DNA from: an uncultured Candidatus Saccharibacteria bacterium
Lineage (GTDB): Bacteria; Patescibacteriota; UBA1384; JAMDBS01; CAZXAY01
Direction: 5' to 3'
Length of the DNA stretch: 30,573 nt
Assembly: GCA_964638435.1 (NCBI GenBank)
Contig: CAZXAY010000010.1
Coordinates: 1 to 30,573 of the forward strand
Below, piece by piece: positions 1,101 to 30,573 of this stretch. The translations under genes were made by a program, and so were the position numbers. Position 1 is the stretch's first letter, and every line of letters begins with the position of its first letter. A model generated the notes under the pieces. It saw only the letters and a list, made by a program, of their open reading frames with translations, had not been told where the DNA came from and did not search any database.

Positions 1101-1607
1101 TTATTCGTTTTTTCTGTCAATGCGATCAAGATCGCGTTTTTTTATTACTTCACGTTTATCAAAGAGTTTTTTACCCCTTCCTAACCCAAGCTCCACTTTT
1201 GCTTTGCCATTTTTGAGATAGATTTTTATGGGGATTAGCGTTAGATTTTTTTCTTGAGTTTTACCAATTAATCTACTTATTTCTTTACGGTGTAAAAGAA
1301 GCTTTCTGGTGCGAGTGGGATCACTGTCGAATACATTGATATGTGTACCTAAAAGAAATAATTCTGGTTTAGAAGTAGAAGCTGGTATTTGGTATCTAGT
1401 ATTTAGTATTTTTGATTTATTTATACTAGATACTCGCTTCTTAATACTCGCTTCTAGAATTTTAGCATAAGAGCCTGTTAAATTCACTTTCCCCACCCTA
1501 ATTGCCTTAATTTCTTTACCACTCAAAACAATGCCGGCTTCAAATGTTTCCAGGATTTCATAATTATGGTAGGCTTTTCTATTTTCACTAACAATTTTAT
1601 AACTCAT
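1101..1607 (-). CDS. smpB: SsrA-binding protein SmpB (carries an in-frame ~24-aa insertion)
   Basis: N-terminus KAYHNYEILETFEAGIVLSGKEIKAIR and the DPTRTRKLLLHRKE block match the SmpB family. An extra segment sits between SYAKIL and ELFLLGTH relative to E. coli SmpB. Confidence 0.85.
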   Translation of the reverse strand: MSYKIVSENRKAYHNYEILETFEAGIVLSGKEIKAIRVGKVNLTGSYAKILEASIKKRVSSINKSKILNTRYQIPASTSKPELFLLGTHINVFDSDPTRTRKLLLHRKEISRLIGKTQEKNLTLIPIKIYLKNGKAKVELGLGRGKKLFDKREVIKKRDLDRIDRKNE

Positions 1608-3381: not shown

Positions 3382-3936
3382 ATGAAAAGTGATGATCAAA
3401 AAATCCACGAGGAGTATGAAAAGCGCCCAAGTTGGGATGAGTATTTTATGGAAATTGCTCATGTGGTAGCAACACGCGCAACATGTAATAGAAATGTTGA
3501 TTTAAAATATCGCCCAGGATTTAAAGGTTGTGGAGTAGTTATTGCCAAAGATAAAGTGTTGCTTTCAACCGGCTACAACGGCGCACCAAGAGGAATGGAA
3601 CATTGTGGACATACTAATCACGAGATGGTAGAAGGGCATTGTATCAGGACAGTGCATGGCGAGGCAAATGCAATTGCTCAAGCTGCAAAAAATGGTGTAG
3701 CAATTGATGGCGCAACCTTGTACACAACTGGGTCAAGTTGCTATGACTGCTTTAAATTATCAGTTAATGCTGGGATAAAAAGGGTTGTTTATGGACAATT
3801 TTACGATAGTCGTTATGGAATGAGTAGCAAGGTTTTGGAACTAGCGAAAAAGGCAGGAATTGAAATGTTACATATAGATGAGTGCAAACCAAAAGTCACC
3901 TCTCGACATCGCTCTAGGCAGGAAGCTAAAAAGTAA
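3382..3936 (+). CDS. comEB: dCMP deaminase (cytidine/deoxycytidylate deaminase family)
   Basis: Zinc-binding motifs HGEANA and SSCYDC (CxxC). 184 aa. Confidence 0.85.
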   Translation: MKSDDQKIHEEYEKRPSWDEYFMEIAHVVATRATCNRNVDLKYRPGFKGCGVVIAKDKVLLSTGYNGAPRGMEHCGHTNHEMVEGHCIRTVHGEANAIAQAAKNGVAIDGATLYTTGSSCYDCFKLSVNAGIKRVVYGQFYDSRYGMSSKVLELAKKAGIEMLHIDECKPKVTSRHRSRQEAKK

Positions 3937-3937
3937 A

Positions 3938-4363
3938 ATGAAAATTAAAGTTAAAAAAATCAATAGTGTTGCAAAAATCCCAGAATATTCCAGAGTGGGT
4001 GATGCGGGGATGGATATTTTTGGTTGTGAGGAGTACGAGCTAATGCCGGGTGAAAAGCATATTTTTGGCTCGGGCATTGCTGTGGAATATCCTGATGATC
4101 ATTTGGCTTATATTTATGACAAAAGTGGACTTTCATGTAAGCATGAATTAATCACTCTTGGCGGTGTAATGGACCCAAACTATCGTGGCGAATGGCAAAT
4201 AACTATCAAAAATATTGGCTCCAAGCCGTATAAAATCGAAAAAGGTGAAAAAATCTGCCAAATAGTTTTCCATAAAATATCTCAAGCTGAAGTTGAGGAG
4301 GTGGACCAGTTAGATAATACTAATCGCGGCGACGGCTGGGCTGGAAGTAGTGGAAGATTCTAA
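3938..4363 (+). CDS. dut: dUTP diphosphatase
   Basis: MKIKVKK...IPEYSRVGDAGMDIF and GGVMDPNYRGE are dUTPase motifs. The likely true ATG is at 3938, one nt after the dCMP deaminase stop. The ORF-track extension to 3878 overlaps the upstream gene and has no RBS. Confidence 0.85.
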   Translation: MKIKVKKINSVAKIPEYSRVGDAGMDIFGCEEYELMPGEKHIFGSGIAVEYPDDHLAYIYDKSGLSCKHELITLGGVMDPNYRGEWQITIKNIGSKPYKIEKGEKICQIVFHKISQAEVEEVDQLDNTNRGDGWAGSSGRF

Positions 4364-4407: not shown

Positions 4408-5037
4408 ATGATCAATCAAATAATTAAAGAAGTAGAAAAATACCTAAAAGGGCGGAGTGATTCGCACGATATTGAGCATTGTCATCGTGTGGCTAAAATA
4501 GCCCGTGAGGTTGCCAAAGACTATAACAAAGCCGATACGGAGATTATTATTGCAGGGTGTTATTTACATGACGTAGGTTATACCAAAGCATCTTATGGTC
4601 ACCCGCATTGCGTGGCTGGAGTTAAAATTGCTCAAGATATTCTAGAAAAAATTGGTTACTCACAAGACAAAATTGATAAAATATGCGAAATAGTATTACA
4701 TCACGAAGATAGCAAATTTGGCATAAAATACCAGCCTAATCTAGAAACTAGAATAGTCCAAGATGCTGATGCAATTGATGGCTTTGGAGCTGTTGGGCTA
4801 TCAAGATTTTTCCAATTCGCTGGCTCAACTAATATGCCTCTTTGGATTCCCAGTTACAAAAAAGAACCAAAGATAATTTATGAAAATATAAGTATAATCC
4901 ATAACATCGAGGCAGTGATTAAATATGCTGGTGAAATTTGTACTACAAAGCTTGGTAAAAAATTGTTTAAATATCGCCTAAAGGTAATGAAAAGTTTTGT
5001 TAAAGAATTTAAAAAAGAATGGACCACCCAGATATAA
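4408..5037 (+). CDS. HD-domain phosphohydrolase (possible 5'-deoxynucleotidase)
   Basis: H..H...HD motif: HCHRVAKIA ... YLHDVGY ... LHHED. 209 aa. Sits in the dNMP/dTMP metabolic context. Confidence 0.7.
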   Translation: MINQIIKEVEKYLKGRSDSHDIEHCHRVAKIAREVAKDYNKADTEIIIAGCYLHDVGYTKASYGHPHCVAGVKIAQDILEKIGYSQDKIDKICEIVLHHEDSKFGIKYQPNLETRIVQDADAIDGFGAVGLSRFFQFAGSTNMPLWIPSYKKEPKIIYENISIIHNIEAVIKYAGEICTTKLGKKLFKYRLKVMKSFVKEFKKEWTTQI

Positions 5038-5048
5038 AATTTCATCAG

Positions 5049-5800
5049 TAACCTGTTATCACCCTCAAGGTGATAACAGGTTATCTACGATATTTTGTTT
5101 ATATGAATTATAGAAAACAACCATTAGTTAATGAAGGAATCTATCATATTCTGAATAAGAGTATCGCAGAGTATAAAATTTTTAGTAATAATTTTCACTT
5201 TAGAAGAATGATGCAATTATTAGTTTACTATCAATATGCCAATGTACCAGTAAGATATTCTTATTTTATTAAGCTTGATCCACAAGAGCAAGATGAAGTA
5301 TTTAGATATTTACAGATAAAAAATGATAAACTTGTTGATATAATTTCCTATTGCCTTATGCCTACCCATTATCATCTTATTTTAAAACAGTTATTGAAAG
5401 GTGGTATTTCAAAATATATCAATTTAATCCAAAACAGCTATGCAAAATATTTTAACATAAAACACGATCGAAATGGCCCATTATGGCAAGGGTATTTTAA
5501 AAATGTATTAGTAGATACAGATGAACAACTTTTGCATTTAACTCGCTACCAACACATAAATCCAGTATCTGCTGGTTTGGTAGAGGATCCTATTGAGTGG
5601 GAATATTCATCTTATAAAGAATATATAGGGAAAAAACAAACTAAAATTTGTAGTTATAATAATTTAATTGATGTCAGACCAAAAATATATAAAAGATTTG
5701 TTGAAAATAGAATTAGTTATCAGCGAGAATTAACAAGAATTAAAAAAATTATATTAGAATAAAAATATCAAACTTAACCTGAAATCACCTTGAGGGTGAT
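5049..5800 (+). mobile_element. REPtron-like unit: RAYT / IS200-like Y1 transposase gene flanked by inverted palindromes
   Basis: Left end: perfect 15-bp stem palindrome TAACCTGTTATCACC-CTCAA-GGTGATAACAGGTTA at 5049-5083. Right end: ATCACC-TTGAG-GGTGAT at 5784-5800. Its loop is the reverse complement of the left loop, and it is preceded by the same TAACCTG..ATCACC arm. Confidence 0.7.
5103..5762 (+). CDS. REP-associated tyrosine transposase (Transposase_17 / IS200-like HUH-Y1)
   Basis: HUH motif in YCLMPTHYHLIL. GPLWQGYF. C-terminal RYQHINPVSAGLVEDPIEWEYSSY matches the RAYT signature NPV.AGLV..P..W.WSS. The ORF-track GTG start at 5070 lies inside the left palindrome, so the ATG at 5103 is preferred. 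Confidence 0.75.
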   Translation: MNYRKQPLVNEGIYHILNKSIAEYKIFSNNFHFRRMMQLLVYYQYANVPVRYSYFIKLDPQEQDEVFRYLQIKNDKLVDIISYCLMPTHYHLILKQLLKGGISKYINLIQNSYAKYFNIKHDRNGPLWQGYFKNVLVDTDEQLLHLTRYQHINPVSAGLVEDPIEWEYSSYKEYIGKKQTKICSYNNLIDVRPKIYKRFVENRISYQRELTRIKKIILE

Positions 5801-5834
5801 ATAAGGTAGGCAATGAAATTTATGTGAGTAAAAT

Positions 5835-7232
5835 ATGGGGAGAAATATGGCAAATAATACAAGAAGAATCTACCAATTAGATCAAAATTTAACACCCGAG
5901 CAAAGGATTGTTACTTTTGCTAAGTGCTCGCGTAGTGCTGAACCATTTGATAAAATCGCCAAAGAACTAACCGACGAAAAAGCAGCCAAATTTAATCAAC
6001 GTTATGTTGTAGCTTTTGGTCACCTGTCAGTGGCCGAGCATGCTGCTTTTAATATCGCTATGGAAGACGTTTCGATATTGGCGACAAAGATAATTGAGGA
6101 TAATCGCTTGGGATCGTTTACCGAGCGTTCCACCCGTTATCAAGTTTATGATAAAAATAGTTATTATAAACCAGATAGTATTATGAATTCAAAATATGCT
6201 GATGTCTATGGAAAAGCTGGTAATTATCTTTTTGAAATTTACGAAAAACTTTATCCGATAGTATGCGAGGATATGAAAAAAAACTACCCAAAAACTAATG
6301 ATAATATTAAAACCTACGACACAATGATTAAAGGTAAAACATGTGATGTAGTAAGATATATTCTACCTGTAGCAACTCTAACAAGTCTAGGTATGACGCT
6401 CAATGCTCGCAATTTAATTTACGCAATTAACAAAATGATAACCAGCCCGCTTGGTGAGATGCAAGATATCGGTAATGATCTAAAAAAGATTGCCGAAAAG
6501 TCTATTCCTACAATTGCTAACATGATTAAACCAATTAAATATCTAGCTGAAACCTTGCCAGAATTACAGAAAACAGTTAGTCGGATATCATTTAATCAAA
6601 CAGATATTAAGCAAGAACCAGTTACTCTAGTAGATTATGATGTTAATGCTGATGATAAATTAGTTACAGCATTAATTTATAGGTTTTTATCACAATCGTA
6701 TGAATCAATTAAAAATAAAGTAAGTAAAATGAGCCAAATTCAAAAAGAGGATATTATTGATCAGGCGCTTAAAAACCGCTCAGCTATGGATCAACCACTT
6801 CGCGAACTCGAGCATATTTATTATACCTTTGATATTTTAATGGATTATGGGGCATTCCGTGATATTCAGCGGCATAGGATGTGCTCGCAAACTAATCAAC
6901 TTGTAACATGCGATCATGGTTATGAAATACCAGACAAGATTCGAGAATTGGGTGTTGAGAAAAAATATATTTCTGCTATGGACACATCACGAGAGGCTTA
7001 CGAAAAGATAAAAAAAGATTTTCCCCAAGAGGCTCAATATATTGTAGCATTTGCTTATAAAAAACGCACTCTATTCACATGGAATTTAAGAGAACTACAC
7101 CATTTTATATCTCTTCGCAGTCGCCCAGCTGGTCACGTCTCATATCGCTTAATTGCTAATCAAGTCTATGATGAACTTGCTAAAGTCCATCCACTACTTG
7201 CTAAATACATAAACGTTGTAAAAATAAAATAG
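5835..7232 (+). CDS. thyX: flavin-dependent thymidylate synthase ThyX, tandem two-domain form
   Basis: Domain 1 has HLSVAEHAAF and DNRLGSFTERSTRY (a degenerate RHR but an intact S.RY). Domain 2 has QRHRMCSQ (RHR intact, S.RY missing). Both halves carry the F.W..N.R.L..F motif (LNARNLIYAI and FTWNLRELHHFISLR). 465 aa. Confidence 0.8.
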   Translation: MGRNMANNTRRIYQLDQNLTPEQRIVTFAKCSRSAEPFDKIAKELTDEKAAKFNQRYVVAFGHLSVAEHAAFNIAMEDVSILATKIIEDNRLGSFTERSTRYQVYDKNSYYKPDSIMNSKYADVYGKAGNYLFEIYEKLYPIVCEDMKKNYPKTNDNIKTYDTMIKGKTCDVVRYILPVATLTSLGMTLNARNLIYAINKMITSPLGEMQDIGNDLKKIAEKSIPTIANMIKPIKYLAETLPELQKTVSRISFNQTDIKQEPVTLVDYDVNADDKLVTALIYRFLSQSYESIKNKVSKMSQIQKEDIIDQALKNRSAMDQPLRELEHIYYTFDILMDYGAFRDIQRHRMCSQTNQLVTCDHGYEIPDKIRELGVEKKYISAMDTSREAYEKIKKDFPQEAQYIVAFAYKKRTLFTWNLRELHHFISLRSRPAGHVSYRLIANQVYDELAKVHPLLAKYINVVKIK

Positions 7233-16344: not shown

Positions 16345-16419
16345 GGCTCGGGGACCAGGATTCGAACCTGGATTCACAGCTTCAAAGGCTGCTGTCCTAC
16401 CATTAGACGATCCCCGAGC
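16345..16419 (-). tRNA. tRNA-Gln (anticodon UUG)
   Basis: Minus-strand sequence GCTCGGGGATCGTCTAATGGTAGGACAGCAGCCTTTGAAGCTGTGAATCCAGGTTCGAATCCTGGTCCCCGAGCC. 7-bp acceptor stem. Anticodon arm GCAGC-CTTTGAA-GCTGT. T-arm CCAGG-TTCGAAT-CCTGG. No encoded CCA. Confidence 0.85.
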
Positions 16420-16582: not shown

Positions 16583-16592
16583 ATATATGCTT

Positions 16593-17014
16593 TAGTAGTA
16601 AAGATTATCGCTCCGATGTAAATCGGGGAGGAAAGTCCGAGCACTTCAAACAATTTACCACGTGTAAACGTGGCCGTCGCAAGACGAGGGAATAGTGTCA
16701 CAGAAATTATACCGCCTAACTATTGCTTGCAATAGTGGTAAGGTTGAAATCGTGAGCCCCTCAATTAAGAGGGGATAGCCTCGAACATTCGGGGTAAAGT
16801 AAGAGCTCACGCGTTTAATTGGTAACAATTAACTGGGTAAACCCTAAATGGTGCAAGTCAGGTGGGTCCGATCATCATCAAAAAGTTAGTTTGGCTCGAT
16901 GTCCACGGATCCTGACGCTTAGACCTCGCCTTTATAGGCGGGGCAAGATAGATGATAATCTAACCTTTTGAGGTAACTCATAGGTAAACAGAACTCGGCT
17001 TATTTACTACTACA
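16593..17014 (+). ncRNA. rnpB: RNase P RNA (bacterial type A)
   Basis: P1 pairing AGTAGTAAA (16596-16604) with TTTACTACT (17004-17012). P4 5' strand GGAGGAAAGTCCGAGC. Conserved ACAGAAATTATACCGCC. GGTAAAGTAAGAGCTCAC. P4 3' strand ACAGAACTCGGCTTAT. Confidence 0.85.
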
Positions 17015-17022
17015 GTATAACA

Positions 17023-20251: not shown

Positions 20252-20422
20252 CAAGATATTAACCTAAAAAATTCTTCTTGTCAAGAAGATTGCTAAATCT
20301 TAAATCATAAATCTAAAATCTAAAATTGTTTAGAGTACTTTTTTGAGATATTGGCCAGTAAAAGAAGTTTTTACTTTAACAACTTCTTCTGGAGTTCCTT
20401 GAGCAACAATTTGTCCGCCCAT
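20252..20422. repeat. 171-bp direct repeat (left copy) = target duplication of the IS
   Basis: Identical by eye to 22026-22196 (171 bp). Includes a copy of the last ~94 nt of uvrA plus downstream sequence. Confidence 0.85.
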
Positions 20423-22025: not shown

Positions 22026-22196
22026 AAGATATTAACCTAAAAAATTCTTCTTGTCAAGAAGATTGCTAAATCTTAAATCATAAATCTAAAATCTAAAATT
22101 GTTTAGAGTACTTTTTTGAGATATTGGCCAGTAAAAGAAGTTTTTACTTTAACAACTTCTTCTGGAGTTCCTTGAGCAACAATTTGTCCGCCCATG
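22026..22196. repeat. 171-bp direct repeat (right copy), contiguous with intact uvrA 3' end
   Basis: Matches 20252-20422. Confidence 0.85.
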
Positions 22197-24601: not shown

Positions 24602-24691
24602 ACGGTCCTTAAAACAAATTCAAATTTCAAAACTCAAATTTTAAATCAAATCCAAATGTTTAAATGTTTTAAAATTAGAATTTAATTAATT

Positions 24692-24724
24692 GACCTGCCC
24701 GACATGCCAGTCATGGCAGGCGGG
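24692..24724 (+). repeat. REP-like nested-hairpin element (part of a ~80-bp repeated block at 24653-24733)
   Basis: GACCTGCCCGACATGCCAGTCATGGCAGGCGGG. Outer stem CCTGCC/GGCAGG and inner stem TGCCA-GTCA-TGGCA. The block is repeated at 30501-30573, with an inverted copy at 10931-10964. Confidence 0.8.
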
Positions 24725-24882
24725 TTAAAAATTTATAATTTCAAATTTGAATTTTATTCATTTGTTGAATTACTTTTCCAAGCATATCATATTTGTCAAG
24801 ATTATGCAAGTAGAGCAATACCCTTGCCAAAAGATAAAAAAATGTTATAGTAAAAACAAGTAAAATAAATATTTATTAATCA

Positions 24883-25397: not shown

Positions 25398-25478
25398 CGC
25401 CACTAATTTTAATACACTAATTTCACTAATAATTCGTGATATTTGTGAAAATATATTAGTGGAGATTAATACAATAAA
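25398..25478 (+). promoter_or_regulatory. repeated 5' leader element, copy A (CACTAAT repeats ... ATTAGTGGAGATTAATACAATA)
   Basis: About 80% identical over about 75 nt to 26813-26894. Three CACTAAT direct repeats and a distal inverted ATTAGTG, which can form a long-range stem. Confidence 0.5.
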
Positions 25479-26812: not shown

Positions 26813-26894
26813 ACCACTAATACACAGATTTCACTAATATCACTAATCATCCGTGTAATTCGTGTAATAGAATTAGTGGAGATTAATACAATAT
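26813..26894 (+). promoter_or_regulatory. repeated 5' leader element, copy B, between infC and rpmI
   Basis: CCACTAAT...TTCACTAATATCACTAAT...CGTG..CGTG...ATTAGTGGAGATTAATACAATA. Followed by AGGAA RBS and the rpmI ATG. Confidence 0.5.
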
Positions 26895-30450: not shown

Positions 30451-30532
30451 AATCTCCTCATAAAAATTCAAAATTCAAATTTGTAACCAAATTCAAAATT
30501 CAAATGTTTTAAAAATTGGAATTTAATTAATT

Positions 30533-30565
30533 GACCTGCCCGACATGCCAGTCATGGCAGGCGGG
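30533..30565 (+). repeat. REP-like nested-hairpin element, third copy (block 30501-30573)
   Basis: Identical to 24692-24724. The flanking AT-rich block CAAATGTTTTAAAA.TTGGAATTTAATTAATT is shared with 24653-24691. Confidence 0.8.
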
Positions 30566-30573
30566 TTAAAAAT

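Follow-up and report, generated by a model that had tools for sequence, protein, structure and literature searches.

A RAYT-type nuclease gene bracketed by its own hairpins, probably a REPtron/TIRtron-type unit, in the dut-thyX interval of Berkelbacteria

The 30,573-nucleotide stretch of DNA analyzed here (contig CAZXAY010000010.1, positions 1 to 30,573, called the window at its full length) carries, between the gene of an HD-domain phosphohydrolase and the thymidylate synthase gene thyX, a nuclease gene enclosed by two copies of a palindromic hairpin. Our main finding is that this unit (positions 5037..5821) is very probably of the REPtron/TIRtron type, that is, a gene for an HUH/Y1 single-stranded DNA nuclease/transferase of the RAYT class (REP-associated tyrosine transposase, where REP stands for repetitive extragenic palindrome), together with two hairpins of its own that would be its cognate sites. 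Comparisons of related sequences show the gene and the hairpins to be co-inherited and co-varying, and show one copy of the unit per hairpin type, not a multicopy insertion sequence. Moreover, the unit appears to have occupied the dut-thyX interval of a Berkelbacteria clade since before the sampled lineages split. The name Berkelbacteria is borne by the related loci from GTDB genomes; the closest database entry assigns the window itself (contig ACD_58C00010) to ACD58, a bin from the Rifle aquifer, which we take to be the lineage later named Berkelbacteria, within the candidate phyla radiation (CPR).

The protein is a RAYT-class enzyme

The RAYT-type gene lies at 5103..5762 on the plus strand and no obvious Shine-Dalgarno sequence was found at it. 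As the earlier note on this DNA had read, the open reading frame encodes a protein of 219 residues, with the HUH motif in PTHYHLIL and with TRYQHINPVSAGLVEDPIEWEYSSY; the catalytic residues are H89 and H91 (HUH) and Y149. The Y1_Tnp profile (PF01797), which that note had proposed as a check, matches at 31.5 bits against a gathering cut-off of 23 (E = 2.2e-7). It is the only Pfam domain in the protein at E <= 0.01, a level at which a C-terminal helix-turn-helix (HTH)-like domain of the DnaA_C/HTH_23/28 type was not detected. The only NCBIfam match is REP_Tyr_transpos (NF047646; 61.1 bits, E = 1.1e-16), and the only PDB sequence match obtained with phmmer is E. coli TnpA-REP (4er8_A), to which the HUH histidines and the tyrosine align.

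The predicted structure points in the same direction. For the AlphaFold2 model, built on 61 homologues (pLDDT 93), Foldseek ranks 4er8_A first among PDB structures (E = 1.2e-7; TM 0.69, target-based). The transposases of IS608 and ISDra2 match the fold at about 1e-4, and the IS608/ISDra2/IS200 group as a whole is roughly 1000-fold weaker. In the alignment of the 61 homologues H89, H91 and Y149 are invariant, as are some 25 further positions. The tyrosine motif of the window protein is YQHINP, that of the family consensus YIHLNP; Quentin et al. (2018; PMC6006769) assign Y-x-x-x-N-P to class 2 (TnpA-REP-like) and Y-x-x-x-Q to IS200, and the window protein carries the class 2 motif. The Y1_Tnp and NF047646 profiles, the match to 4er8_A in both sequence and fold, and the Y-x-x-x-N-P motif together imply an intact RAYT-class HUH/Y1 enzyme and not an IS200 TnpA, as had been proposed from the letters alone.

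Two inverted copies of one hairpin flank the gene

The left extended palindrome spans 5036..5096, with 28-nt arms that are 82% complementary. Its core, at 5049-5083, is the perfect 15-bp stem TAACCTGTTATCACC / GGTGATAACAGGTTA with the loop CTCAA (5064-5068), exactly as first described, and a weaker outer stem adds AAAAT / ATTTT in the predicted fold and ATATCA / TGATAT in the relatives. Folded as single-stranded DNA, a 73-nt stretch around the core reaches -16.4 kcal/mol (z = -7.3). By analogy with known systems, the left palindrome is presumed to be a binding and cleavage site of the adjacent nuclease. The right extended palindrome (5762..5822, core 5775-5809) repeats the left hairpin in degenerate form, with ATCACC-TTGAG-GGTGAT at 5784-5800, where the earlier note had placed it, and with the TAACCTG arm at 5775-5781; it folds at -8.0 kcal/mol (z -3.0) as single-stranded DNA. 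Its loop, TTGAG, is the reverse complement of CTCAA, so that the two hairpins are inverted copies. They stand about 20 nt before the RAYT start codon and about 12 nt past its stop.

The REPtron-like arrangement claimed for this gene, flanked by its own hairpin in inverted orientation, is therefore present, and the similarity extends beyond the hairpins into a 67-nt terminal inverted repeat (TIR; arms 5037-5103 and 5755-5821, 76% complementary) that bounds the whole unit. The G+C content of the unit is 26-29%, versus 34-41% in the flanking genes, and the unit lacks the G-over-C skew seen in its neighbors.

Eight hairpin copies from five lineages could be aligned without gaps. Over this set, 85% of the cells of the 15-bp stem and the short outer stem (ATATCA...TGATAT) are paired, and compensatory double changes are seen in 11 of the 22 pairs; the covariation score is 0.386, versus 0.15 for shuffled alignments (0/500) and at most 0.11 when the partners are slid. 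The foot of the hairpin is TAACC...GGTTA in the window. Its AACC...GGTT part and the apex (C.CC / GG.G) are invariant among the eight copies, and the middle of the stem varies. In one related locus, L122, 13 nt of the 3' arm of the right hairpin (1826-1873) are duplicated in tandem (two copies of CAGGGCGGTAACA), which we read as evidence that slippage or processing has acted on the hairpin itself.

It is conceivable that the palindromes are instead ordinary terminators, or stem-loops that stabilize the operon mRNA, with no relation to the open reading frame. Strong intergenic stem-loops directly after the stop codons of the HD and RAYT genes would suit such a role, and REP hairpins act on mRNA stability in E. 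coli. However, neither hairpin is followed by a T-tract and a terminator scan reports none at either site; the two copies share their flanks past the stem, as the 67-nt TIR; and a matching two-sided hairpin that co-varies with the protein occurs in 64 of 80 family loci from many phyla (see below). We regard this explanation as extremely improbable.

The architecture recurs in many phyla

A pattern scan of the GTDB species genomes yielded at least 573 family loci, in Omnitrophota, Planctomycetota, Berkelbacteria and other CPR bacteria, Elusimicrobiota, WOR-3, Nitrospirota and others. The proteins are about 220 residues long and share the HuH motif T-H-u-H (T-H-Y-H in the window), with a nearly invariant T. 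Hairpins were examined in the best 80 of these at least 573 loci, and in 64 of them the same hairpin core is found on both sides of the gene, within 260 nt, the typical spacing being 12-60 nt upstream and 0-35 nt downstream. An ACC-loop-GGT apex like that of the window is present in 34 of the 64 two-sided loci. A CCACC-TCGTA-GGTGG apex recurs across phyla, and the hairpin of the complete Berkelbacteria genome CP011213 is ATTCCACC-TCGTA-GGTGGAAT. The AACC...GGTT foot is common, not universal (20 of 132 family hairpins). Protein similarity is correlated with hairpin-apex similarity (Mantel r = -0.30, 0/2000 permutations).

Most of the 20-kb loci contain the two flanking hairpin copies only. Some loci of Omnitrophota and Planctomycetota have 3-7 copies, including tandem doublets, and no extra copy was seen in any Berkelbacteria locus examined. 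Nearly all protein clusters of the family have 1-3 members. The ACD58 paralogues P0013, P0068 and P0097 share 50-60% identity with one another and with the window protein (P0001). Flanks could be read for two of them, which have different private hairpins; the contig of the third is truncated on one side. Strict inversion of the two flanking copies was also considered as a family rule and was ruled out, the scorable loci being 22 inverted and 22 direct.

An old insertion in the dut-thyX interval

The closest ThyX homologues (84-87% identical where full length) come from four contigs, the next best being at most 58% identical, and a fifth relative (L210/L211) was found through its RAYT. The window has the order dut - HD - [hairpin RAYT hairpin] - thyX. 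L128 has a DCD-like gene, HD, 43 nt and thyX, with no RAYT gene and no significant hairpin relic, the best local alignment in its HD-thyX spacer being equaled by 76 of 1000 shuffles; its HD is full length and 87% identical to that of the window. L122 has the DCD-like gene, the unit and thyX. L129, which comes from the same sample as L122 at 85-89% nucleotide identity, has no RAYT gene and carries, at the site of the L122 unit, a solo hairpin alignable to each of the two hairpins of L122. In L127, dut is followed by the unit, the last ~19 codons of HD, ~130 nt and thyX, and in L210/L211 by HD codons 1-35 (88.6% identity, E 1e-17), the unit and thyX. Orthologous hairpin-gene-hairpin units are found, then, directly or closely upstream of thyX in L122, L127 and L210/L211; in blastn, the window is collinear with L122 over the unit plus thyX (75% nucleotide identity) and with L127 over just the unit (71%).

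The tree derived from ThyX identities is ((window, L127), (L128, (L122, L129))). Identity among the five thyX-linked RAYTs is 60-63%, versus 84-87% for ThyX, and these RAYTs form a clade among the 61 family members (neighbor joining bootstrap 82%). On the simplest reading, the unit was acquired once, long ago, in the dut-thyX interval and was then inherited vertically, while the RAYT would have diverged faster than ThyX. The insertion is taken to be old because orthologous units in this interval are only 60-63% identical.

This history bears on an alternative in which the unit is an active insertion sequence of the IS200/IS605 kind, a recent arrival in the HD-thyX spacer that would behave as any multicopy element. 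The Y1_Tnp fold and subterminal hairpins are common to IS200 and IS608, the unit is AT-richer than its neighbors, and its presence varies among relatives whose HD junctions differ, all of which an insertion sequence would account for. Against this, the protein has Y-x-x-x-N-P (YQHINP) and not the Y-x-x-x-Q of IS200 (PMC6006769), no tnpB lies between HD and thyX, and the ends are copies of one palindrome rather than distinct left and right ends. Near-identical copies are lacking as well, given the small clusters and the diverged same-bin paralogues described above, and the locus orthologues, distant as they are in sequence, form a clade, which argues for an old insertion. An active insertion sequence is thus very unlikely.

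The earlier note left a choice between a RAYT domesticated within the operon and one that had recently split it, and neither branch survives the comparison: the insertion is old, and the gene is dispensable to the operon because L129, with its solo hairpin, and L128, with its empty site, lack it. Domestication deserves to be weighed in its own right, as a gene serving the operon, for example in thyX regulation or in DNA processing under nucleotide/thymidylate stress. The gene is intact with invariant catalytic residues, four lineages agree in its position and orientation relative to thyX, and in the window (37 nt), L122, L129 and L211 the right hairpin lies 20-37 nt ahead of the thyX start. 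Yet two close relatives do without the gene, some 200 nt including the HD stub separate the unit from thyX in L127, and family members elsewhere reside in unrelated contexts, such as NifU/MarR in L123. Vertical inheritance, as reflected in the thyX-linked RAYT clade, suffices to explain the linkage to thyX, and we consider domestication most improbable. No functional link between the unit and dTMP synthesis was found. Transcription of thyX presumably passes through the unit or starts behind it, and in a promoter scan promoter-like sites were no commoner than in shuffles.

The loci also suggest what has happened around the unit. In L129 the RAYT gene has been lost, leaving the solo hairpin behind, and we infer recombination between the two flanking hairpins; in L128 the unit would have been either lost or never there. 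The HD junctions differ, falling after the stop codon in the window, before the last ~19 codons in L127 and after codon 35 in L210/L211. Besides the window, only L128, which has no unit, retains an intact HD gene; of the five lineages with a present or former unit, four have HD truncated or missing. This suggests that the unit promotes adjacent deletions, although six loci are no proof.

Search for dispersed copies and weighing of the interpretation

The absence of further palindrome copies in the window, reported from the start, was confirmed: the 17-nt core occurs at the two flanking sites only (0.02 expected by chance), and the gapped hairpin pattern finds the left copy only (0 expected). 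A metagenome scan with the 17-nt core returned at least 119 stretches, the window's own contig not being among them; all are single chance matches, mostly in GC-rich coding DNA, and none of the stretches has an extended hairpin or a RAYT homologue. One further locus that matched the gapped hairpin pattern (L110) proved to be an unrelated terminator-like stem. Rfam, at the gathering cut-offs and at E <= 1, has no family for the hairpins, and gives only sub-threshold miRNA noise on the palindrome.

Several observations weigh against a REPtron/TIRtron-type unit. Neither the 30.5-kb window nor 1.2 Mb of related loci yielded a dispersed hairpin copy, so that the 'REP family' half of a REPtron is at best putative here. 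The GT[AG]G foot of canonical REPs is missing, in that the eight aligned copies have no conserved GTAG/GTGG. The NF047646 score of the protein stays below the equivalog cut-off of 80 bits, and the even split between inverted and direct hairpins in the family does not favor a fixed arrangement. Finally, the three HD junctions are not derivable from one arrangement by deletions alone, which implies at least one local relocation.

It is possible, if unlikely, that the window protein is a member of a large TnpA-Y1 subclass outside the published classifications, made up of 'REPtrons without REPs', and that the unit promotes loss of adjacent genes. Such units may keep only their two private hairpins, at one locus, over long periods. 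If this were true, the unit would be an agent of gene loss in CPR genomes that are already minimal, HD being eroded from either side according to lineage.

Proposed mechanism and significance

For the REPtron/TIRtron-type unit that we favor, the mechanism proposed below is based on the biochemistry of TnpA-REP and IS608 (PMC3479197, PMC6006769). If it acts as TnpA-REP of E. coli and TnpA of IS608 do, the protein would bind the folded hairpin on single-stranded DNA, for instance on the lagging-strand template, and would recognize the conserved apex (CACC-loop-GGTG) and the foot of the stem. Cleavage would then take place nearby, with a metal bound by H89/H91 and with Y149 as the nucleophile forming a 5'-phosphotyrosine. 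Rejoining of the strands could permit excision, inversion, deletion or copying of the DNA that the hairpins bound.

These results extend the RAYT/TIRYT-type hairpin-plus-nuclease unit to Berkelbacteria, with the same architecture in hundreds of genomes from poorly studied phyla. For a RAYT unit present in a single copy, a natural series such as that of the six related loci is rare: it comprises the full unit, a solo hairpin, an empty site and three states of HD decay, and it bears on the question of what RAYTs do without a REP population to maintain. For annotation, the RAYT gene should be kept outside the thymidylate pathway, and the HD-thyX linkage is the native state. A specialist of Y1 transposases will not be surprised by the unit; what is useful is the series of loci that can be compared, and how broadly the family is represented in candidate phyla.

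Other features of the window

According to Pfam, the neighbors of the unit in the operon are tmk, a gene for an AAA-type P-loop kinase, and the genes for dCMP deaminase, dUTPase and the HD protein upstream, and thyX downstream, which bears out the earlier statement that the unit interrupts the dTMP operon between HD and thyX. The accompanying description of the operon as tightly packed, with spacers of 1-45 nt, does not hold throughout: the tmk-kinase spacer measures 183 nt and holds a structured element. The HD-domain phosphohydrolase gene (4408..5037, plus strand; Pfam HD) is intact and its stop codon lies 11 nt before the left hairpin. The thyX gene (5847..7232, plus strand; Pfam Thy1, TIGR02170) encodes a double Thy1-domain, FAD-dependent thymidylate synthase; its start is most likely 5847, rather than 5835, judging from the 461 residues that it shares with its homologues and from GGGGAG 5 nt upstream. 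The two Thy1 stretches of the 461-residue ThyX amount to an internal duplication, and in several relatives thymidylate kinase and the double ThyX are fused into proteins of ~700-740 residues.

The dUTPase of the window (3878-4363) has 161 residues; L210 has the same protein, and L127 has its C-terminus. L128 (1589-2128), L122 (533-1072) and L129 (532-1071) have, in the operon position of the dUTPase, a gene of the DCD-like/dUTPase family encoding 179 residues, which is ~28-31% identical to the 161-residue dUTPase. In a clade with ThyX proteins 84% identical, the dUTPase has thus been replaced by a gene that is either non-orthologous or very divergent.

The GC-rich structured element of the tmk-kinase spacer (2600-2725) has a long outer stem, AACCTGTTCCAAC...GGTTGGTACAGGTT, and a minimum free energy of -53.8 kcal/mol as RNA (z -4.0); no Rfam family matches it, even at E <= 1. 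A 42-nt core of the element is 90% identical in the Berkelbacteria locus L159 (5886-5927, minus strand), directly after tRNA-Arg(CCT). An element of ~95 nt that resembles it in style lies at 700-806 of L212, downstream of the paralogue P0097; rather than a simple hairpin, it has a long outer stem, ACTTTCTCACTTTCC...GGAAATGAGAAAGT, around a GC-richer interior. The distant relationship once suspected between the RAYT hairpin and the element at 2603 was not upheld: the shared 8-mer, AACCTGTT, occurs twice outside the hairpin versus 1.44 expected, which is the level of chance.

A GC-rich palindromic repeat, GACCTGCCCGACATGCCAGTCATGGCAGGCGGG, is present in three copies in these 30 kb of AT-rich DNA (24694-24730 and 30533-30569 on the plus strand, 10929-10965 on the minus strand), two of them within a 111-nt repeat (24622-24732 / 30463-30573, 86%). 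This repeat bears no relation to the RAYT hairpin and has no flanking RAYT here; it could be a REP-like family of the window's genome or a shared promoter/leader. A 62-nt intergenic repeat (25415-25476 / 26832-26893, 82%) ends in ATTAGTGGAGATTAATACAATA just before gene starts, and a 26-nt part of it is 96% identical in L127 (947-979), within a palindromic element of ~95 nt that lies between the HD stub and thyX. The window also contains a 170-nt direct repeat with 100% identity (20253-20422 and 22026-22195, 1773 nt apart), which might stem from a gene duplication, a repeat protein or the assembly, and an imperfect palindrome at 14617-14707 (45-nt arms, 73% complementary, 1-nt spacer). Other genes recognized are smpB (1101-1607, minus strand), tRNA-Gln(TTG) (16345-16417, minus strand) and class A RNase P RNA (16592-17017, plus strand; 174.6 bits); despite the presence of smpB, searches of the window with ARAGORN and with Rfam gave no tmRNA gene.

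Comparison with known systems

A REPtron consists of a RAYT/TnpA-REP gene and flanking REPs, the reference being YafM/TnpA-REP of E. coli (PDB 4ER8; PMC2817692, PMC3479197, PMC6006769). The unit resembles it by its HUH plus single-tyrosine core with Y-x-x-x-N-P, TnpA-REP being the best match in sequence and fold, and by a gene bracketed by copies of one palindromic hairpin, inverted in the window. It shares with REPtrons one gene copy per hairpin type, with diverged paralogues per genome that each have their own hairpin, and a mostly vertical inheritance. It differs in that the window hairpin has no GT[AG]G foot and the protein scores below the NCBIfam equivalog cut-off; in its motif T-H-Y-H, whereas the key motifs of the subclasses in PMC6006769 all start with D or N; in its 219 residues, with ~50 extra residues at each end compared to 4ER8; and in that no dispersed REP/REPIN population was detected in the window or in the Berkelbacteria loci.

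Members of the IS200/IS608/ISDra2 group (class 1) have in common with the unit the HUH/Y1 fold of their TnpA and the recognition of subterminal DNA hairpins on single-stranded DNA. In contrast, their own traits, namely Y-x-x-x-Q, a length of ~150 residues, multicopy near-identical elements, distinct ends and often tnpB, are all absent here.

TIRtrons consist of a TIRYT gene with TIRs that are sometimes self-complementary and have few or no further genomic copies (Di Nocera 2013, PMC3733652), and they prevail in species without classical REPs (PMC3733652). TIRYTs probably correspond to subclass 2.1, or Bertels group 1, of PMC6006769. Like a TIRtron, the unit is a RAYT-like gene enclosed in TIRs (67-nt arms, 76% complementary) with few or no extra copies; the family consensus YIHLNP equals one of the subclass 2.1 motifs, and an SS motif is found in the C-terminal tail. 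The differences are that both window repeats lack a GGGG run and hence the GGGGWSAS motif, that Pfam detects no C-terminal HTH-like domain, and that the protein has 219 residues versus a subclass median of 238. In short, the unit works like a REPtron and looks like a TIRtron.

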